Source of the DNA: an uncultured Poribacteria bacterium
Lineage (GTDB): Bacteria; Poribacteria; WGA-4E; WGA-3G
Length of the DNA stretch: 64,000 nucleotides
Assembly (NCBI GenBank): GCA_951813565.1
Contig: OX638351.1
Coordinates: 2,432,001 to 2,496,000, forward strand
Direction: 5' to 3'
The notes beneath the pieces were generated by a model. It made no database searches and was not told the DNA's origin. It worked only from the letters and a program-made list of their open reading frames with translations. Position 1 is the stretch's first letter; each line of letters opens with the position of its first letter. A program made the position numbers and the translations under genes. This document shows, piece by piece, positions 2,398 through 62,612 of the stretch.

Positions 2398-2536
2398 AAA
2401 AGACTTTTAAGTTAAACTTTTTATGGTAGATTTTAGAATTACTTGGACACTCTGCACCCGCGAGATGAATCAACGCCGAATGCGCGTGGTAGAATAAGCG
2501 TTTGGTTTTCTGCATAATCTGTCACTAACTACTACC

Positions 2537-5399: not shown

Positions 5400-5761
5400 G
5401 GGTGTGTAAATATTTGGTTACATAGGTTCAATTTGCAATGATTACGCGGCGTTTTCCACTGTAGAGCGGGGTCCCTGTGCCCCATGCCGTCAATTTAAGG
5501 ATATACCCTCTTGTGGGAGGGGTTTTCAACCCCGATAAAACATATAAATCGGGCTTATAAAGCCCTCCCACAAGAGGCAATCTGGTAATTGTGTGCTTAA
5601 ATTGACGCCTATGGGCGGGGTCCCTGTGCCCCGCCACTGTGCAGGACGTGCCATGCAACAGGCAGGCACCAAATCAACGGTCCGAATGCCTTTTGGCATT
5701 CCCCGGAGACCCGCCCCTTCAATAGGAGTTGTGCGGATTTCTACAAAAACTTTACACACCC
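5400..5761. mobile_element. Composite MITE (GGGTGTGTAAA TIR) containing nested REPs, a second MITE and a hairpin unit
   Basis: 11-bp TIR; TCAGAGTAT duplication at 5391-5399 and 5762-5770; inverted near-identical copy at 62146..62543. Confidence 0.85.
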
Positions 5762-13369: not shown

Positions 13370-13655
13370 GTTCGTAGGTTGGGAAGAATACAGCGAGACC
13401 TAACATGTATTTTTCTTGTAGGAGGGGTTTTTAACCCCGATTGTTTCTGCATCTCGGATTGGTATGGATTTTTTATCTGAACCAGGATTGTCATGATTAT
13501 AGAATTTCCAAGATTATACATTTTTCTGAACAATAAATGTTTCTTTTGGTAGAAACGCGTTTTGTAGTCGCGCAATTCATTGCCAAATCAAGACAAAATG
13601 TGATTTTGACATTTGTCTTCTCTAAATCAATGCTATCGTATCGGGGTTGAAACCC

Positions 13656-13808
13656 GCAGCATGCCATACGGGGAATGCCATAAGGCATTCGGACCCGGTG
13701 AATGACTAAAGACGAATGCGCTTGGTAGAATACGCTTTTGGTATTCTACATGATTCGCCATGATTCATACCGTTGATTTCTTGATTTGGCGCATGCTGCG
13801 TTGATTCA
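13656..13808. repeat. Nested stack of AATCAAC-hairpin units inserted in a REP
   Basis: Flanks GGGGTTGAAACCC|CTCCCAC reconstitute a REP; near-identical stack at 18414..18566; inner part also at 51905..51990. Confidence 0.8.
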
Positions 13809-13894
13809 CTCCCACAAAGAGAGGAAAGGGCGACATACCAAGGAAAGAGAAGGCGGGCACAAAGACCCGCCCTATAAATCAAACAAAGTTACGA

Positions 13895-15337: not shown

Positions 15338-16711
15338 CAAGCGTTCCGTTCAAAACCCAATGCTTTAGCTTTGGGATGTAGACACCGCTAACGTCTCCAT
15401 TTTTTTGTTGATTTTTCCTTGCGTTTGTGGTATACTATCCCCAGCATTACAGCGGTGGATTTCACCTCTCGCTTGAGAGTGCCACCGCACCATTTGAAAG
15501 TGGTATTGTAATGCGAACCTACAAATACAAGGGACAAAAACATAAACGCAATCGTCATCTGCAAAAAGACCTGCGTCCCATTGCGCATGTCCACAACCAT
15601 TTTGTTGCGTTGTTGCAACGTCACTATCGCATCTACGGACATTGCGAAGATTACAAACGACCCAATGCATTTAGGATGATTAAACATCTGACGAAACTGA
15701 AACGACTTGCTAAATATCAACACTGGACAATCCCATATTCTTGGTGTTTGCAAGAATGTATCCAACGCGTTGACAGAGGTTGGAAAAACTTCTTTGAAGG
15801 TAGAGCCAAGCGTCCGCCTAAATTTAGAAGTCGGCATAAATATAAATCTATGACTTTTGATGGTAGCCAAGTCAAAATAGAAACTTTTGACAAAACAGAT
15901 GGATGCCCCGTTGCGAAAATCCGTATCAATAGAAGGTGGTATCGCTGCTGGTATAGCAGACCTATTGAAGGCAACATCAAACGGGTTACCGTTAAGAAAG
16001 ACTTTGTAGGGGATTGGTATATCACTATCACAACAGACGCAGAAGGACTTGAGCCTGCACCTAAGACTGGTAGGACAGCAGGGTTTGATTTTGGACTCAA
16101 GGATTTTCTCACCTGTTCCGATGGCACGAAATATCAATCTCCTGAATTCTATAAATCTACTGCTAAACTGATAAAACGTGCGAGTCGTGCGTTGTCTCGG
16201 AAGCAGAAAGGCAGTAATAATCGCGAGCGTGCGAGGAAAGACCTTGCACGGGTACACAGGAAAATTAATCGGCAGCGGGAAGACCATCATTGGAAACTCG
16301 TGCTTGAACTTGTCCGAAAGTTTGATGTCTGTTTCTTCGAAAACTTGAACCTTGACGGCATGAAGCGCCTCTGGGGACGCAAAGTTTCGGACTACGGCTT
16401 TGCAGATTTCAGGCTGAAAATCAAATGGCAAGCACAAAAACGATGCAAGCACGTTGTGCAGATTGACAGATGGACACCCACAAGCAAAGTTTGCCACGCC
16501 TGCGGACAAATCCATAAGTTCTTTAATTTGAGTGTGCGCGATTGGTGTTGTCATCACTGCAAAATCTCTCATGACCGTGATATAAACGCTGCTATAAACA
16601 TTCATAAGGTTGGGACGTCAACCTTTTCAGGAGGAGACGTAACACCTGCCTCGGCAGGCAGTCTCTGATGATAGAAGAATCCCATGCCTTTAGGCTTGGG
16701 GAGTATGTCAA
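15338..16711 (+). mobile_element. IS200/IS605 family (IS1341-type, tnpB only) element inserted after TTAT
   Basis: Left end AAAA-CCCAATGCTTTAGCTTTGGG hairpin; right end GAAT-CCCATGCCTTTAGGCTTGGG...TCAA; removing it restores the neighbouring gene end CIAE-stop. Confidence 0.9.
15511..16668 (+). CDS. tnpB: RNA-guided endonuclease TnpB
   Basis: PKFRSR, RuvC GFDFGLK / FFENL / HDRDINAAINI, zinc finger CHAC..CHHC. Confidence 0.93.
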   Translation: MRTYKYKGQKHKRNRHLQKDLRPIAHVHNHFVALLQRHYRIYGHCEDYKRPNAFRMIKHLTKLKRLAKYQHWTIPYSWCLQECIQRVDRGWKNFFEGRAKRPPKFRSRHKYKSMTFDGSQVKIETFDKTDGCPVAKIRINRRWYRCWYSRPIEGNIKRVTVKKDFVGDWYITITTDAEGLEPAPKTGRTAGFDFGLKDFLTCSDGTKYQSPEFYKSTAKLIKRASRALSRKQKGSNNRERARKDLARVHRKINRQREDHHWKLVLELVRKFDVCFFENLNLDGMKRLWGRKVSDYGFADFRLKIKWQAQKRCKHVVQIDRWTPTSKVCHACGQIHKFFNLSVRDWCCHHCKISHDRDINAAINIHKVGTSTFSGGDVTPASAGSL

Positions 16712-18119: not shown

Positions 18120-18685
18120 GTAGGTTGGGTAGAGCGCAGCGAAACCCATAAATCAACGGTATGAATGCCTGAATCAACGCCAAATGCGCTTTTTGGCATT
18201 TGGCGGGTTTTCAACCCCGATTTCTTCTCTATGAGAAGTATTCAACTATGAGAAATCAATATATCGGGCTTCCAAAGCCCTCCCACAAGAAAAAAATCAG
18301 CAACTTAAGTATATACCTTCTTGTGGGAGTGAATCAACGCCAAATGCGCTTTTTGGCATTTATCGGGTTTTCAACCCCGCTGAATGCCTACACGCGCATT
18401 CAGCGTTGATTTGGCAGCATGCCGGACGGGGAATGCCATAAGGCATTCGGACCCGGTGAATGACTAAAGACGAATGCGCTTGGTAGAATACGCTTTTGGT
18501 ATTCTACATGATTCGCCATGATTCATACCTTTGATTTCTTGATTTGGCGCATGCTGCGTTGATTTGGATTTAACAGTTTGAGTCTCACAAAATCGGGCGG
18601 ACAAGGTCTCCCTCCCACAAGAGACAATCTGGTAATTATGTGCTTAAGTTGACACCTATGGGGTAGAGCGCAGGGAAACCCAACA
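18120..18685. repeat. Dense cluster of REPs, a GTCAACTTAAG-type MITE and AATCAAC-hairpin units
   Basis: Units at 18149, 18170-18204, 18330-18364, 18379-18413, 18414-18566; CAACTTAAG...CTTAAGTTGAC IR. Confidence 0.8.
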
Positions 18686-41683: not shown

Positions 41684-42556
41684 CAGCGTATCTCATAAAT
41701 AGCAAAAAACATTAGATTGTCTTTTAATTATGGATCATTTCTGTTAAACTATTGTCCAGTATATATAATAGTTAGGAGATGATTTGAATGGAACTGAGTG
41801 ATAAAGAGTGGCAAATCTTGGAACCGCTGATGCCAGCACTTTCAACTGGACAAAAGGGGAGGCCCTGGCGTGAGAACCGAGAAGTGTTAGATGGCATACT
41901 CTGGGTGTTGCGGACAGGGGCACCTTGGCGGGATTTACCGAAGAAGTATCCGCCGTATCAAACGTGTCATCGTCGTTTTCAACAATGGTCTTCGGATGGC
42001 ACACTTAAAAAGGTGGGCACAACGATCACAGAAAAACTTGAGAAACGCCGTCACCTGAATATGAGTGAATGCAGCATTAATGCGAAGTTCGTTGCAGCAA
42101 AAAAAGGGTTTGTGTGTAGGAAAGACGAAGTGTGGCAAAGGGACAAAACTGGTAGCGATTACAGATAAGCGTGGCAGACCTGTGAGTGTTTTGATTGCGA
42201 GTGCCTCCTGCCATGAAGTCCGTTTGGTTGAACCGGCATTGGATGCGTGTTGGACTTCAGAACCGCCAGGAGTGTTGATAGGAGACAAAGCCTATGACTC
42301 GGATCCTTTAGATGCGTCTTTGCGGTGTCGTGGCACTGAAATGATAGCGCCCCATAAAAAGAATCGGAAGCGTCCTGCTACACAGGATGGTCGTCTACGC
42401 CGGTATAAACGCCGTTTCAAAGTGGAGCGTTTTTTCAGTTGGTGTGAAGACTTTCGGCGTTTGGTAGTGCGTTGGGAATATCATGCTGAAAACTATTTAG
42501 GGTTTGTGCTTCTGGCATGTCTACGGATGTTAATGAGGTATTTATGAGATACGCTG
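41684..42556 (+). mobile_element. IS5 family (IS427-like) element, two ORFs 41788-42168 and ~42100-42547
   Basis: CAGCGTATCTCATAAATA TIR with TA flanks; LRTGAPWRDLP, GDKAYDS, YKRR..VERFF; AAAAAAAG slippery site. Confidence 0.92.
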
Positions 42557-42760
42557 TATAAATAACCCTGATTCCTATGACAGAGGGGTCAATTATCGGC
42601 TTATTACCTATTTTAGTCGAAATGTCGCGAGTTGGAGCTCGCTTGGACAGGAAGAAACTTTTGAAAGAAGTTAGAAACTGTTGGAAAATTGAATGACTCT
42701 GAGTTCAGGTATTCCATATCTTTCCATACAATCACTAAAGTTTGGACAATATTATTAAAT

Positions 42761-43873
42761 TGAGGGTGTTTCATAAATAATAGTTGTCAAAAGTCAGGAT
42801 ACTGGGTATTCTTTCATTTTATATCACATAACTTGAAGGAGATACCCATGCAGTATCCTGACATGAGAGAGTATATCACATTTCTGTTTTCAATGTTAGA
42901 CGAGTTCTTGATATCTCAAGAAGATGTCTCAAAAAGAGGTAGACCCCAGACTTATCCGGATGCTTCGCTCATCGTCTTTTACACCGTTATGACGCTCAAG
43001 GGGATCACGGCTATGCGTGCCCAGCAGATTTATTTGTTTCATCATCCACTCTGGCTTGAAAGATGTCGACTGCCAGCATGTCCGTCTCACGTGGCGCTTG
43101 GTCGCAGATATAAGGCGTTGATGCCTAAACTCAAAGCGTTCACTGAATACATCGCAGCCTCTCAGTTCGCTCGGGAAGCCGGGTTTCTTCAAGAAGTCGT
43201 TTACGAAGATAAAAGCCTGTTCAAAGCTGCGGGGCCCGTCTGGCATCAGAAGGATCGTCTCAACGGCTATCTCCCTAAAGGCTTGCGAGGTGTTGATAAA
43301 ACTGCCACGTGGTCTAAAAGCGGATATCACGGATGGGTTTATGGATATGGACTCCATCTCACCAGCATCCGTAACGGCTTTCCAGTGATGTTTCAGGTGC
43401 TACCTGCCAACGTTAACGAGCGGAAAGTGTTGGATACTAAAAAAGACCGACTTATTGAAAAAGGCGTGCGATGTATCGTTGCTGATAACGGATATATTGA
43501 TAAAAAACGCACCGCAGCTTTTGCCGAAGCCCAAGTGCTTTTGCTAACCCCGAAGACGGCTTTAGCAGAAGCTAACGAACTCTTAGGCGCAGACCCACTC
43601 TATACCGCAACACAAGTTGCCACATGGCAGGTCGCACGAAAAACTGCGATTGAACCTGTCTTTGATTTGTTGAGCAAACTCTTGTCAATCACGGGGGCGC
43701 ATAAACCTTTACCGCTGCGAAATCTGGCGTATGTTTCCACCTTTTTGGGCATGGGTATACTGTTGCTGCAACTTTCAATGTTAATGAATGTCCGATGCGG
43801 GTTACCCACGCGAAATGTTACCTATATCAAAACTGTCTTTCGATAAAAAATAGCGATTTATGAAACACCCTCA
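42761..43873 (+). mobile_element. IS982-like DDE element (transposase 42848..43846)
   Basis: TGAGGGTGTTTCATAAAT 18-bp TIR, ATTAAAT flanking repeats; GWVYGYGLHL, ADNGY, R.AIEPVF; family assignment tentative. Confidence 0.8.
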
Positions 43874-43954
43874 ATTAAATAACAGGGGTTTCATAATGCC
43901 AGGGTCTAAAGTTTAGTCGAAAGTTGTGTAAACCACAACAAGTTTCCATGACTA

Positions 43955-45186
43955 AGTGGTTTACTCGCTAAGTTTTAGGCATATTTTCAATCACAGAACC
44001 GTAGGGTCCTAACTGGTATAAAGGTTGCTTTTGCGGTGTCTCTTCCAGTGGTAAGGGCGTTTATGTGCGTTCCACCAACACACCGCACTATTCAGCGCAT
44101 CTGTCAGTTCCTCTTGCGTCTCAAACCTTCGCCCTTTCAGTGCCAAAGACTTCAACTGTCTCCACCACGGTTCTATCAAGTTCAACCAATACGCATATTT
44201 CGGAATAAACTGCACCCCAATCTCCGGCCACGCCAACAAAGCAGTCTTCACATTGTGACTGTGGTGAGTAGAAAGATTATCTTCAATCAGAAGCCACTTG
44301 TCTGATGGAAACTTCTCTATGACTTTCTCTATTAACGCAATATGGCTCACACTATCCCTCCGCTCCGAAATTACTATCTCCGCTTGACCCGTTGCCGGTT
44401 CAAACGCACCATGAACCCACACTTTTCCACGGCGACCATAGTCCGGGTCATAAGTCGCACGATCCGAACCTTGTTGCCAAACTTCACCCGGATACGTCTT
44501 AGCCGCTACCGGCCCCATTTCGTCAATACAAATTACACGCGTTTGAGGTGGACGATTGACATACGCCGCTATGATGGACCCTTTTTTGGACAAACGCCGC
44601 GTCTTGTTTCTTCGCTTCACGAAACCAACTTTGTTGACGCTTCCAATGCAATCCCTCTTCTTTCAGCCACTCCCAGATCGTTGAATCAGAAAGATGAATA
44701 CCTTGCCTCTCTTTAAACGCAGTTTGCAACCGGACGAGTGTCCACAACTCAAACGGATAACCGAGACTGCGCGGTTTTCGCAACGCTAAATCTATCAGTT
44801 GACCCCGCACCTCATCTGAATGGATGCGCGGTTTACCACTTTTCGGTTTATCGGTGAGCCCTGAGATACCCGCTTCATTGAAGCGTTTGACCCAACACGC
44901 ACCAGAGTTGCTTGATTTGAAACCTGCCTGTTGTGCTGCTTGGGTGGCTGTGAGCGTCTTATCATCAAGCATACTCACAACCAACTTCGCACGCTGCACC
45001 ATCCGATAGGCGTGTGTGCGTGAACTCGCAACTGTTCTGAGTTCTGATTCTTCTTCTTCACTGACTTCGCGTAAATGATGCACTCGCTTTCCCATCTAAA
45101 TGCTCCTGTCCATTTAATTCAATAGATAGAAGAAGTATACCATAAATAGAAAAATAATGACATAAAATCTTGGCGAGTCAACCACT
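43955..45186 (-). mobile_element. IS630 family element (orfA from 45095, orfB to 44009, frameshift at AAAAAAG)
   Basis: Imperfect TIR AGTGGTT(T/G)ACTCGC(T/C)AAG; DEMG, DNLSTH, WLNLIEPWW. Confidence 0.88.
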
Positions 45187-48762: not shown

Positions 48763-49023
48763 GTTCTCCTTCCATAAGTTCGGGTAATAATCTTTGCAAT
48801 TTTGAACCCGATTTCAATACGTCATTATGTAATTATCGTATCATGTAAAACGCAAATAGACAAGTGAAATTTATAGACCGTTCTTTTCTTCTGAAACATC
48901 CTCAACAAATGTTTGCAGTCTATTTCAATTGACACACTGTGTGAAATCTGTTATATTAAATTTATTCCGATTGTAACAAGTAAAAGGCAGTTTTGCCATA
49001 TATTTCTTTCTTATAACCTATCA

Positions 49024-49362
49024 ATGCGTAACACACAACTGAGAGAATTAGAATTCTACAGAACTCAAAATGGCAGAGAACCTTTCACTGAATGGTTTGA
49101 ATCAATCCGAGATAAAAATGTACTTAACAGAATTGAACGAAGAATTAACCGACTTGAAAGTGGTAATTTGGGTGACTGTAGTCCTGTTGGCGAAGGCGTT
49201 TTTGAACTACGACTCCACTTCGGTCCCGGTTATCGCATCTATTTTGGAGAAGTTGCAAACACGGTAATTGTCCTACTTTGTGGTGGTGATAAATCGTCAC
49301 AGCAGCGTGACATTGAACGCGCAAAAACTTACTGGTTAGAATATAAGGGAACACAACGATGA
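49024..49362 (+). CDS. Type II TA toxin, RelE/HigB (addiction module killer) family
   Basis: GNLGD..VGEGVFELRLHFGPGYRIYF..LLCGGDKSSQQRDI. Confidence 0.9.
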   Translation: MRNTQLRELEFYRTQNGREPFTEWFESIRDKNVLNRIERRINRLESGNLGDCSPVGEGVFELRLHFGPGYRIYFGEVANTVIVLLCGGDKSSQQRDIERAKTYWLEYKGTQR

Positions 49363-49682
49363 GAAAATTTCGAAAATGGCACGATTATCTAATTGAACGT
49401 CTTGCCGCAAACAAAGAAGAGGCAATTGGTTATCTTGATGTAGCGTTGGAAGAATATCAAGAAGATGGTGATACATCCTTCTTTCTAAAAGGTGTTAGAA
49501 ATGTAGTAGAAGCGCAGGGTGGTGTTTCCGAGCTTGCCAAGAAGACGAAGATGTCTCCAGATGCCTTGCAAAAGATACTCTCAAGTGATAAGGCACCGCA
49601 TGTTGACAAGTTCGGAACCATTCTGAATGCACTCGGATGTCGATTGTCTGTTGTGCCGTTAGAAAACGAACATCCTTCATAA
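49359..49682 (+). CDS. Addiction module antidote (HTH antitoxin)
   Basis: YLDVALE..GD..FLKGVRNVVEAQGGVSELAK; ATGA overlap with toxin. Confidence 0.88.
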   Translation: MRKFRKWHDYLIERLAANKEEAIGYLDVALEEYQEDGDTSFFLKGVRNVVEAQGGVSELAKKTKMSPDALQKILSSDKAPHVDKFGTILNALGCRLSVVPLENEHPS

Positions 49683-49803: not shown

Positions 49804-50676
49804 CAGCGTATCTCATAAATAGCAAAAAACATTAGATTGTCTTTTAATTATGGATCATTTCTGTTAAACTATTGTCCAGTATATATAATAGTTAGGAGAT
49901 GATTTGAATGGAACTGAGTGATAAAGCGTGGCAAATCTTGGAACCGCTGATGCCAGCACTTTCAACTGGACAAAAGGGGAGGCCCTGGCGTGAGAACCGA
50001 GAAGTGTTAGATGGCATACTCTGGGTGTTGCGGACAGGGGCACCTTGGCGGGATTTACCGAAGAAGTATCCGCCGTATCAAACGTGTCATCGTCGTTTTC
50101 AACAATGGTCTTCGGATGGCACACTTAAAAAGGTGGGCACAACGATCACAGAAAAACTTGAGAAACGCCGTCACCTGAATATGAGTGAATGCAGCATTAA
50201 TGCGAAGTTCGTTGCAGCAAAAAAAGGGTTTGTGTGTAGGAAAGACGAAGTGTGGCAAAGGGACAAAACTGGTAGCGATTACAGATAAGCGTGGCAGACC
50301 TGTGAGTGTTTTGATTGCGAGTGCCTCCTGCCATGAAGTCCGTTTGGTTGAACCGGCATTGGATGCGTGTTGGACTTCAGAACCGCCAGGAGTGTTGATA
50401 GGAGACAAAGCCTATGACTCGGATCCTTTAGATGTGTCTTTGCGGTGTCGTGGCACTGAAATGATAGCACCCCATAAAAAGAATCGGAAGCGTCCTGCTA
50501 CACAGGATGGTCGTCTACGCCGGTATAAACGCCGTTTCAAAGTGGAGCGTTTTTTCAGTTGGTGTGAAGACTTTCGGCGTTTGGTAGTGCGTTGGGAATA
50601 TCATGCTGAAAACTATTTAGGGTTTGTGCTTCTGGCATGTCTACGGATGTTAATGAGGTATTTATGAGATACGCTG
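49804..50676 (+). mobile_element. IS5 family (IS427-like) element, second copy
   Basis: Near-identical to 41684..42556, with a few substitutions. Confidence 0.92.
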
Positions 50677-51849: not shown

Positions 51850-52044
51850 CTTGTGCCTCCTCATTATTTGAGTAGGTTAATTGTTTTGACAGACTACAGA
51901 AATAGGTGGGGAATGCCTAAAGACGAATGCGCTTGGTAGAATACGCTTTTGGTATTCTACATGATTCGCCATGATTCATACCGTTGATTAGGTATCTATA
52001 AGTTTTAACTATCCCTGTAGAGGTCGCTGGTCTCTAAAGTAACA

Positions 52045-59040: not shown

Positions 59041-59150
59041 TAATTTTTTGCCAATGGCACAAAGTTTGCCGAAAATCTATGTTCCAAGTACCTACCTTGT
59101 TGATATGAGAGGTGTGTATGGATAAATCAATGTCAATGGCTTAAGTAAAT

Positions 59151-59411
59151 GAGGGGTGTGCATAAATATTTGGCGCATCAACACAGACAGGGACAGACGC
59201 CAGGTGCCGCTTGATTTATAGAAATGCGTTTGTAGTCGCGCAATTCATTACCAAATCAACGCAGCATGCGCCAAATCAACGGTCCGAATACCTTATGGCA
59301 TTCCCCGTGTGGCATGCTGCGCCTCTTTGAACTTGTGGACGGAAACCCACGGCGTGTGCGGACTACCTTTAAGCGCATATTTAACATCGAAATTATTTAT
59401 GCACACCTCTC
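59151..59411. mobile_element. MITE (GAGGGGTGTGCATAAATA TIR) with 8-bp duplication, carrying a REP with nested hairpin units
   Basis: AAGTAAAT at 59143-59150 and 59412-59419. Confidence 0.78.
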
Positions 59412-59476
59412 AAGTAAATAACTTCCGCGATTATACGCCACCCTTAGCAATAAATCGTACCTATTAGTTCTCACTT

Positions 59477-62061: not shown

Positions 62062-62145
62062 TGATGTGTCTCACCGAATACGTTAAGCTTTTGATGTTTA
62101 GAGTATATCACACATAGTTGTTGCAGGCAACTTGGGTAATAGGTT

Positions 62146-62543
62146 GGGTGTGTAAAGTTTTTGTAGAAATCCGCACAACTCCTATTGTAGGGGCGGGTCT
62201 CCGGGGAATGCCAAAAGGCATTCGGACCGTTGATTTGGTGCCTGCCCGTTGCATGGCACGTCCTGCGCAGTGGCGGGGCACAGGGACCCCGCCCATAGGC
62301 GTCAATTTCAGCACACAATCACCAGATTGCCTCTTGTGGGAGGGCTTTATAAGCCCGATTTATATGTATTTATCGGGGTTGAAAACCCGCAGCATGCCAA
62401 ACGCGCATGCTGCGTTGATTCACTCCCACAAGAGGGTATATCCTTAAATTGACGGCTATGGGGCACAGGGACCCCGCCCTACAGTGGAAAACGCCGCGTA
62501 ATCATTGCAAATTGAACCTATGTAACCAAATATTTACACACCC
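62146..62543. mobile_element. Composite MITE, inverted second copy of 5400..5761 with an extra 34-bp insert
   Basis: GGGTGTGTAAA/TTTACACACCC ends; insert at 62389-62422; no flanking duplication seen. Confidence 0.85.
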
Positions 62544-62612
62544 AGAGAGACTTTTCAACTTGAAAGGTTTTAAGGGGTGTGATAGAATAGTGTAAAAAAA
62601 AGGAGGTTTGCA

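Follow-up and report, generated by a model that had tools for sequence, protein, structure and literature searches.

The 153-base stretch at positions 13656-13808 (minus strand) of the window, i.e. of the 64,000 nucleotides of DNA analysed here, is an unusually deep nest of very small selfish elements, in which five hairpin units sit one inside the other in the order A[B[C[d[e]]]]. The genome is that of a sponge-symbiont Candidatus Poribacteria, represented by one 5.43-Mb contig, and the stack lies in a spacer of ∼525 bases between convergent genes for an SDR oxidoreductase and a beta-propeller protein, within a REP-type hairpin whose empty form is found at about 5513-5536. The homologs with a named source of the gene to the left come from Candidatus Poribacteria. 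The original prediction had read from the minus strand a stack of hairpin units inserted into each other four to five layers deep. That parse holds base for base, and a recursive parser independent of it, which strips the innermost hairpin unit at each step and requires a near-intact leader, returned a depth of five with the exact bounds of the stack.

The layers are built from units of two types. A, B and C are units of 34-36 bases with a 9-base leader (two variable and seven fixed bases) and a stem-loop, their general anatomy being a short unpaired leader followed by a stem-loop of 25-26 bases; d and e belong to a second type of 28 bases with a 3-base leader. Where C enters, the last base of the B leader is replaced (Table 1). 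Folding, which had been proposed as a check, gives for C[d[e]] as single-stranded DNA a single rod with the leader unpaired (leader strand z -2.9 as DNA and -4.2 as RNA; opposite strand z -1.9), and the arms of A still pair around their 119 bases of cargo.

Table 1. Layers of the stack, its host REP and related units of the window (brackets denote nesting).
Feature	Positions	Strand	Remarks
Layer A, shell	13789-13808	-	9-base leader, left arm, first two loop bases
Layer B, leader	13781-13788	-	at the C^G step of A's loop, offset 20
Layer C, leader and left arm	13763-13780	-	in B's leader slot, offset 8
Layer d, left part	13753-13762	-	in C's left arm, offset 18
Layer e, innermost 28-base hairpin with 3-base leader	13725-13752	-	in d's left arm, offset 10
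Layer d, remaining loop (shortened by e) and right arm	13711-13724	-	
Layer C, remaining loop (shortened by d), right arm, added terminal G	13696-13710	-	
Layer B, body (bulged hairpin)	13670-13695	-	compare simple B at 5670-5704
Layer A, rest of loop and right arm	13656-13669	-	
Host REP before the insertion	13809-13817	-	coordinates by eye
Host REP after the insertion	13640-13655	-	coordinates by eye
Second full stack A[B[C[d[e]]]]	18414-18566	-	then Q-type unit 18379-18413, head to tail
Simple A	62389-62422	-	precise 34-base insertion relative to empty paralogous site near 5520
A[B] in carrier MITE	59252-59320	+	inverted arms of MITE at 59141-59171 and 59391-59421
Simple B in REP loop	5670-5704	+	paralog at 62203-62237
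B-type unit with d[e]	51908-51991	-	one of three genomic paralogs has the same B and no cargo
Decayed R-type shell with e-like guest	2466-2519	+	right side of shell lost; by eye, not called by the parser

Leader-plus-arm heads number 807 in the genome and none in either the reversed genome or a 1-kb block shuffle, and the stack family is therefore not a product of chance. Genome-wide, the parser recovers 1094 units, 742 of them top-level, with 556, 111, 20, 29, 25 and 1 at depths 1 to 6, respectively; since it requires a near-intact leader, it under-calls mutated stacks, including the second full copy in the window. That copy, to which the original prediction had pointed, has the same length in unrelated flanks and differs at five positions (the first two leader bases, one base in C's leader and two in A's loop). 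BLAST yields 27 near-full matches of at least 146 bases and at least 94% identity, the query counted, and 38 matches in 27 flank groups for the 85-base core C[d[e]]. The units are mostly extragenic, with 20 of 607 sites lying inside ORFs of at least 120 aa. On the side that can be tested, that of the leader, the stack is not an assembly artefact: unique contigs from four runs in four studies join the neighbouring gene to the stack's leader end, reaching 13788, 13788, 13789 and 13777, respectively. None of the contigs listed spans the whole stack, and the Logan contigs break within the repeat. Rfam gave no match in the window at gathering score, none of 12 matches to viral contigs has the hairpin, and no same-species strain was found among the metagenome loci; the orthologous spacers of other species, 58-1329 bases long, are not alignable to the stack site.

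Close to the stack, inspection by eye finds at 13564-13617 (+) a decayed leader unit in the usual slot of the commonest REP; the right half of this REP is missing, the sequence continues into the stack's host REP, and the arrangement, at 40 bases from the stack, has the look of a recombinant junction. An intact REP at ∼13418-13441 is inverted relative to the stack's host REP (13640-13817) and lies ∼200 bases off, the pair forming a REPIN-like doublet. Elsewhere in the window are a toxin-antitoxin-like pair at 48913-49682 (+), in which a DUF891/Gp49 gene is followed by an HTH antidote-type gene, and clustered transposase genes of IS4/IS5-type and IS630-type at 41788-45095 and 49908-50667, some of them split across two frames.

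Throughout the genome, the 352 guests that could be parsed occupy fixed slots. B enters the loop of a shell at offset 20 and in the same orientation in 64 cases (44 in A, 14 in P, 6 in Q); 72 of the 87 C units sit in B's leader slot at offset 8; d lies at offset 18 in the left arm of C, B or K in 72 cases, 59 of which are C[d]; and e lies at offset 10 in d in 39 cases. The original prediction had proposed looking for junctions that stay constant across copies, and this is what the slots show, as do the outer junctions, which are the same with and without cargo. Of 913 leader units, 761 are followed by G and another 130 by what appears to be the leader of a next unit; among B units of other species G follows in 107 of 112. 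Where the empty target has a G at the 3' junction the insertion is clean, and where it does not, one to four target bases are swapped for the unit plus G; B's own leader shows such a replacement at its last base, which is otherwise nearly invariant. The 5' junction shifts by 1-2 bases, and the target often loses 1-5 bases (about 2-5 of the host's where a 28-base unit has entered). For 267 of 607 sites there is an empty paralog whose flanks match at length; 90 of the 267 are clean and 177 differ, many of the latter through ordinary paralog divergence. Of two paralogous MITEs in the window, one carries A as an exact 34-base insertion, and no target duplication accompanies it. While the usual unit has one leader motif, 24 matches, many of them nested pairs, have it at both ends. 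The paralogous MITEs at 5400-5761 and 62145-62544 consist of outer terminal repeats, an inner inverted-repeat element and a REP doublet, followed by units; their outer repeats match a 1.46-kb transposase element that has 9-base duplications in several copies.

For each type of junction, the nesting fixes the order of host before guest. The simpler forms to which the original prediction assigned earlier stages were partly as described: A alone, A containing B and B alone are all called by the parser, whereas the supposed inner block alone (51905-51990) is actually a B-type unit with d[e] and not a C block, and the supposed partial inner pair is actually a decayed R-type shell with an e-like guest rather than a d/e pair. 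Since replaced bases could not be restored by simple deletion, the simpler forms are probably precursors of the stacks and not products of their decay.

Loaded inner blocks, i.e. d[e] (∼52 bases), C[d] and C[d[e]] (85 bases), have been delivered into many resident hosts. All 39 copies of e inside d are identical, and eight other sequences occur among the 12 e-type units elsewhere; of the d units, 31 of 59 within C hold e, as against 0 of 19 within S. The core, over 35 of its 38 matches, shows 15 differences in 2975 bases; its B hosts, in contrast, comprise 12 variants among 32 copies, and its surroundings may be A, P, Q, d-type, chimeric or a bare REP. The B at 51908-51991 carries d[e] in two of its three paralogs, the third being cargo-free, and an orthologous B of three species has a guest in one of them. 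In the large target classes the shell and the B loop are constant, and the leader slot of B contains nothing, C, C[d], C[d[e]] or C[d[B]]. For 144 of the 189 B units, the B loop variant is associated with site class (1.37 bits; null 0.35; p=0.0005) and not significantly with cargo state (0.26 bits; null 0.22; p=0.17), permutation p-values that overstate the case, copies within a class being kin. The B loop, although only about 12 bases from the junction, is not co-converted; it follows the site and not the cargo, which suggests that the inner blocks arrived pre-assembled in resident shells. The core also occurs in B units of plain REPs, and its left homology there to donors of other classes is less than 10 bases.

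The stack at 13656-13808 is not a step-by-step log of local events. Of the ordered insertion record that the original prediction saw in such stacks, the junction types survive and the order of events at a site does not, since blocks were pre-assembled and some stacks are left/right chimeras. Similarly, the proposal that a unit stays mobile after gaining cargo is borne out for d[e] and C[d[e]], but not for an outer unit with its cargo, in view of classes in which cargo varies within a constant shell. We therefore regard it as unlikely that the whole 153-base stack, or the 119-base B stack, was mobile and that the loaded element made the outermost junction in one step, as had been supposed. Such a step would accord with the sameness of the outer junctions, with the pairing of A's arms around their cargo, with shells that are not significantly more mutated than the core (8/756 vs 15/2975, p=0.11), and with the copy at 13656-13808, which has unique flanks and, in a REP class of 83 sites, stands alone as a full stack in first position. 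However, each large class has simpler siblings with the same shell and the same B loop, no class with loaded A shells only is found among the 32 largest groups, and the first two leader bases vary with the target and are not the same in the two copies of the window.

The account that we favour, tentatively and at slightly less than an even chance, is that the stack is a composite of non-autonomous tiny hairpin elements, assembled by leader-defined copying of single strands into nicked hairpins, for which a HUH-type enzyme acting in trans would be the likely agent. It draws on the fixed slots, the filled and empty paralogs, the 3' G rule, the replaced bases, the uniformity of e in d, the site-bound B loop and the rod-like fold. 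The units would move as single-stranded DNA; a structure-specific enzyme provided in trans, most likely a nuclease of HUH/Y1-type, would recognise no more than the leader and the stem base, with the donor strand being copied into a nicked hairpin target. An enzyme reading only these parts would explain why cargo in loop or arm comes along. In the most likely order of building, A would have entered the REP, B the loop of A, and C[d[e]], in one step, the leader of B; carrier MITEs, tandem duplication and gene conversion between stacks may then have multiplied and shuffled the copies. Y1 enzymes are known to transfer strands conservatively and into a fixed short target, and it speaks against single-strand copying of this kind that the junctions lose bases and that the left flanks are variable. 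So do the want of a cognate enzyme, the REPs that flank the RAYTs, the four of 40 genomes in which Y1 was not found, and the chimeric shells and chimeric syntenic-site stack, which show that recombination also acts. Beyond this account, it is conceivable, if doubtful, that the units represent a new single-strand insertion system, inherited vertically in two Poribacteria genera and served by an enzyme outside the known transposase families, which would need a 7-9-base leader and the stem base. Such a system, about which we are just as doubtful, would target hairpins by their structure and carry the contents of the stem, of which 85-95 bases are seen and perhaps the full 153 could be accommodated.

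The asymmetry of the junctions, and a core that folds best as RNA on the leader strand, would also suit an RNA-templated process, in which unit transcripts are reverse-transcribed at nicked hairpins to leave a fixed 3' junction, a ragged 5' junction and small target deletions. We consider this improbable. Two reverse transcriptase (RT) genes are indeed present in the genome, but one, with a separate Cas1 gene beside a CRISPR-like array (contig 3988991-3995449), seems to be a Cas1-linked RT, and the other, a stand-alone gene for 511 aa (contig 811749-813284), an RT of defence type. Within the genus, only 18 of 40 genomes yielded an RT, and several genomes rich in units, single-contig assemblies included, did not; RT was rejected as the enzyme of the units, its presence (not found in 22 of 40) failing to track them. 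Moreover, units and flanking genes show no co-orientation, 163 units running with the gene and 207 against it (a weak bias, p=0.025). GC skew is too irregular for replication strands to be assigned.

Copies of the stack also spread by other routes. Segmental duplication, which the original prediction had named as the alternative that long shared flanks would betray, was rejected for the stack locus, whose flanks are unique (best flank scores of 18 and 7 against any other copy), and it is among the 38 core matches that nine do share flanks, being carried in a MITE. These nine copies form the largest flank group of the core and belong to a MITE family, mostly with their own 6-7-base target duplications, of which the copies carry every stage from 34 to 164 bases; full stacks ride in the MITE in nine cases. 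The carrier MITE around some stacks measures ∼255-350 bases and has terminal inverted repeats and a target duplication. Tandem 188-base repeats consist of the stack plus a Q unit. Shells with arms of different families account for 4 of 27, and one chimeric stack lies at a site where 4 of 5 relatives retain synteny, so that conversion is more likely than rearrangement; at a second, synteny is broken in 5 of 5 relatives, which may be fortuitous.

These carrier-borne, tandem and chimeric stacks would fit a reading that dispenses with a dedicated enzyme for the blocks: rare founding insertions would have been followed by gene conversion or templated repair between repeats, which rode in REPs and MITEs. 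We judge this to be on the unlikely side, though a serious contender, and give equal weight to its premise that repair was started by hairpin nicks, made by RAYTs on the host REPs or arising from replication. In its favour are, furthermore, that leader bases and replaced bases are class-specific, that a loop variant not seen in simple P units occurs in three cargo-bearing P shells, and that none of the searched enzymes tracks the units. It is difficult to reconcile, however, with (i) about 175 target groups, which would need many founding events, all with the same leader and terminal G, (ii) a leader motif that is kept across two genera while the arms vary, (iii) the lack of co-conversion of the B loop, and (iv) between-class homology as short as 9-14 bases on one side.

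Searches for RAYT, reverse transcriptase, integron integrase, IS110 and IS91 tied no cognate enzyme to the units. RAYTs were rejected on their surroundings, since the 10 Y1 loci of this genome and the 20 loci of the genus that were inspected are flanked by canonical REPs or IS ends, with units present as guests only. Y1 genes were not found in 4 of the 40 unit-carrying genomes of the genus, one of them a single contig, and neither was a RAYT found in these four. A RAYT lying among the REP family that is commonest here (about 190 copies) was found in a related genome and has no close relative in this one; REP families can outlive their enzymes, and the absence of a RAYT is accordingly weak evidence. 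An integron model was discarded, as the integrase profile TIGR02249 stayed below cut-off here and gave no match in 73 of 73 other genomes of the family. The sole tyrosine recombinase from the family search has 207 aa and a catalytic domain only (contig 4771354-4771977; 78-95% in orthologs); its close orthologs occur in 19 of 30 further genomes of the genus and in none of those of the second genus, a distribution unlike that of the units, and it was likewise rejected. Full-length XerC/XerD was not found at cut-off in the genome, nor was IS110; IS91 gave no match in the genome in a search that gave no match in controls either. Ends of IS605 or IscB were rejected as a source of the units, given that the element ends at the 29 visible among the 33 loci examined (out of 51 TnpB matches plus one IscB locus) are not units. 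At 15427-16668 (+) lies a TnpB-only element of IS605-type, whose right-end hairpin has an apex that appears to resemble that of some B variants. Within one common leader form, the guide and cleavage tetramers of IS608 right ends would overlap.

Units are present in 40 of 40 genomes of the genus and in 36 of 38 of the sister genus, some of the latter at background level. Five genomes from three further genera of the family yielded none, and other families give mostly 0-3 background-like matches. In the genome collection, 79 of the 80 matches listed are titled Poribacteria. A survey of junctions in the genus, which used exact or near-exact patterns and incomplete genomes, found the doubled leader in 32, d in the arm of B or C in 24 and e in d in 11 of 39 other genomes, and the arm type of A in 7 of 24 genomes of the genus. 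This distribution suggests that the middle junctions are oldest and the outermost, A-type shell youngest, and that stacks would have grown both inward and outward. In other species the leader may be repeated up to four times, or doubled before a single body.

The movement of bacterial repeats of 20-40 bases has been called an open question (REPs, PMC8266576; SMRs, PMC3119063). The unit family offers defined donors, fixed acceptor slots, pairs of filled and empty sites and a cargo series from 28 to 95 bases, and the end requirements are thus testable with oligonucleotides. If the ends alone suffice, the units would constitute a minimal, cargo-tolerant insertion system. The stacks also represent 85-150 bases of near-identical portable homology that is visibly recombining, and as history they can serve to date junction types across species, not events at one site.

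No description of this Poribacteria unit family was found in the literature covered, subscription papers lying largely outside it. With regard to integrons, the units share with attC a hairpin and a terminal G, their 7-base motif resembles the inverse core, and the leader slot corresponds to the position at which an integrase would cut. Unlike attC sites, however, the units are shorter and carry no cassette genes, and no integron integrase was found in this genome or 73 others of the family. With REPs, BIMEs and REPINs the units share the tag-plus-hairpin layout, hundreds of extragenic copies and tandem clusters, and REPINs are reported to insert into or beside REPINs (PMC3116915, PMC8266576, PMC6006769, PMC3733652). 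By the published definition of REPs (PMC6006769), the units differ from them in having the 7-base leader motif, and not the canonical 5' tetranucleotide, at the foot of the stem; in contrast to the REP/RAYT pairing, no RAYT flanked by units was seen among the loci inspected, and the units sit as guests in REPs.

Closer in behaviour are the SMR-A and PATE elements of Haloquadratum walsbyi, which make no target duplication and strongly prefer palindromes of other mobile elements; SMR mobilisation is there called enigmatic, and the PATEs are hairpin-based and as short as 52 bases (PMC3119063). The Poribacteria units likewise make no target duplication and enter hairpin repeats, and like PATEs they have no terminal inverted repeats. 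SMRs have 80-110 bases and terminal inverted repeats, whereas the units have 28-36 bases, are one-sided and nest in themselves; PATEs have IS605-like ends and a short target oligonucleotide, in contrast to the units, which match no IS605-type end at the loci examined and have variable left flanks and loss of target bases. The GC clusters of yeast mitochondria, e.g. GC42, are palindromes of ∼40 bases that spread, fuse and reshuffle to yield new mobile forms and take part in gene conversion, with an unresolved enzyme and a putative target duplication (PMC4478555). They differ from the units in being organellar and in that duplication, and leader-defined slots are not described for them (PMC4478555). 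Unlike MITEs, the units and the stack have neither terminal inverted repeats nor target duplications.

A further parallel is provided by the small dispersed repeats (SDR) of Nostoc, reportedly the subject of Elhai et al. (2008, Genome Res 18:1484). According to several papers, these are very small, dispersed and apparently mobile, with no known enzyme (PMC4390886, PMC3116915, PMC2884548), and SDR5 inserts precisely at one position of the HIP1 repeat (PMC4390886). Compared by description and not by sequence, the Poribacteria units in their fixed slots share with the Nostoc repeats the precise insertion at a preferred site of another repeat, and they are set apart by their occurrence in another phylum and, as far as these papers describe the SDRs, by fixed-slot nesting five layers deep and by the delivery of blocks of 52-95 bases.
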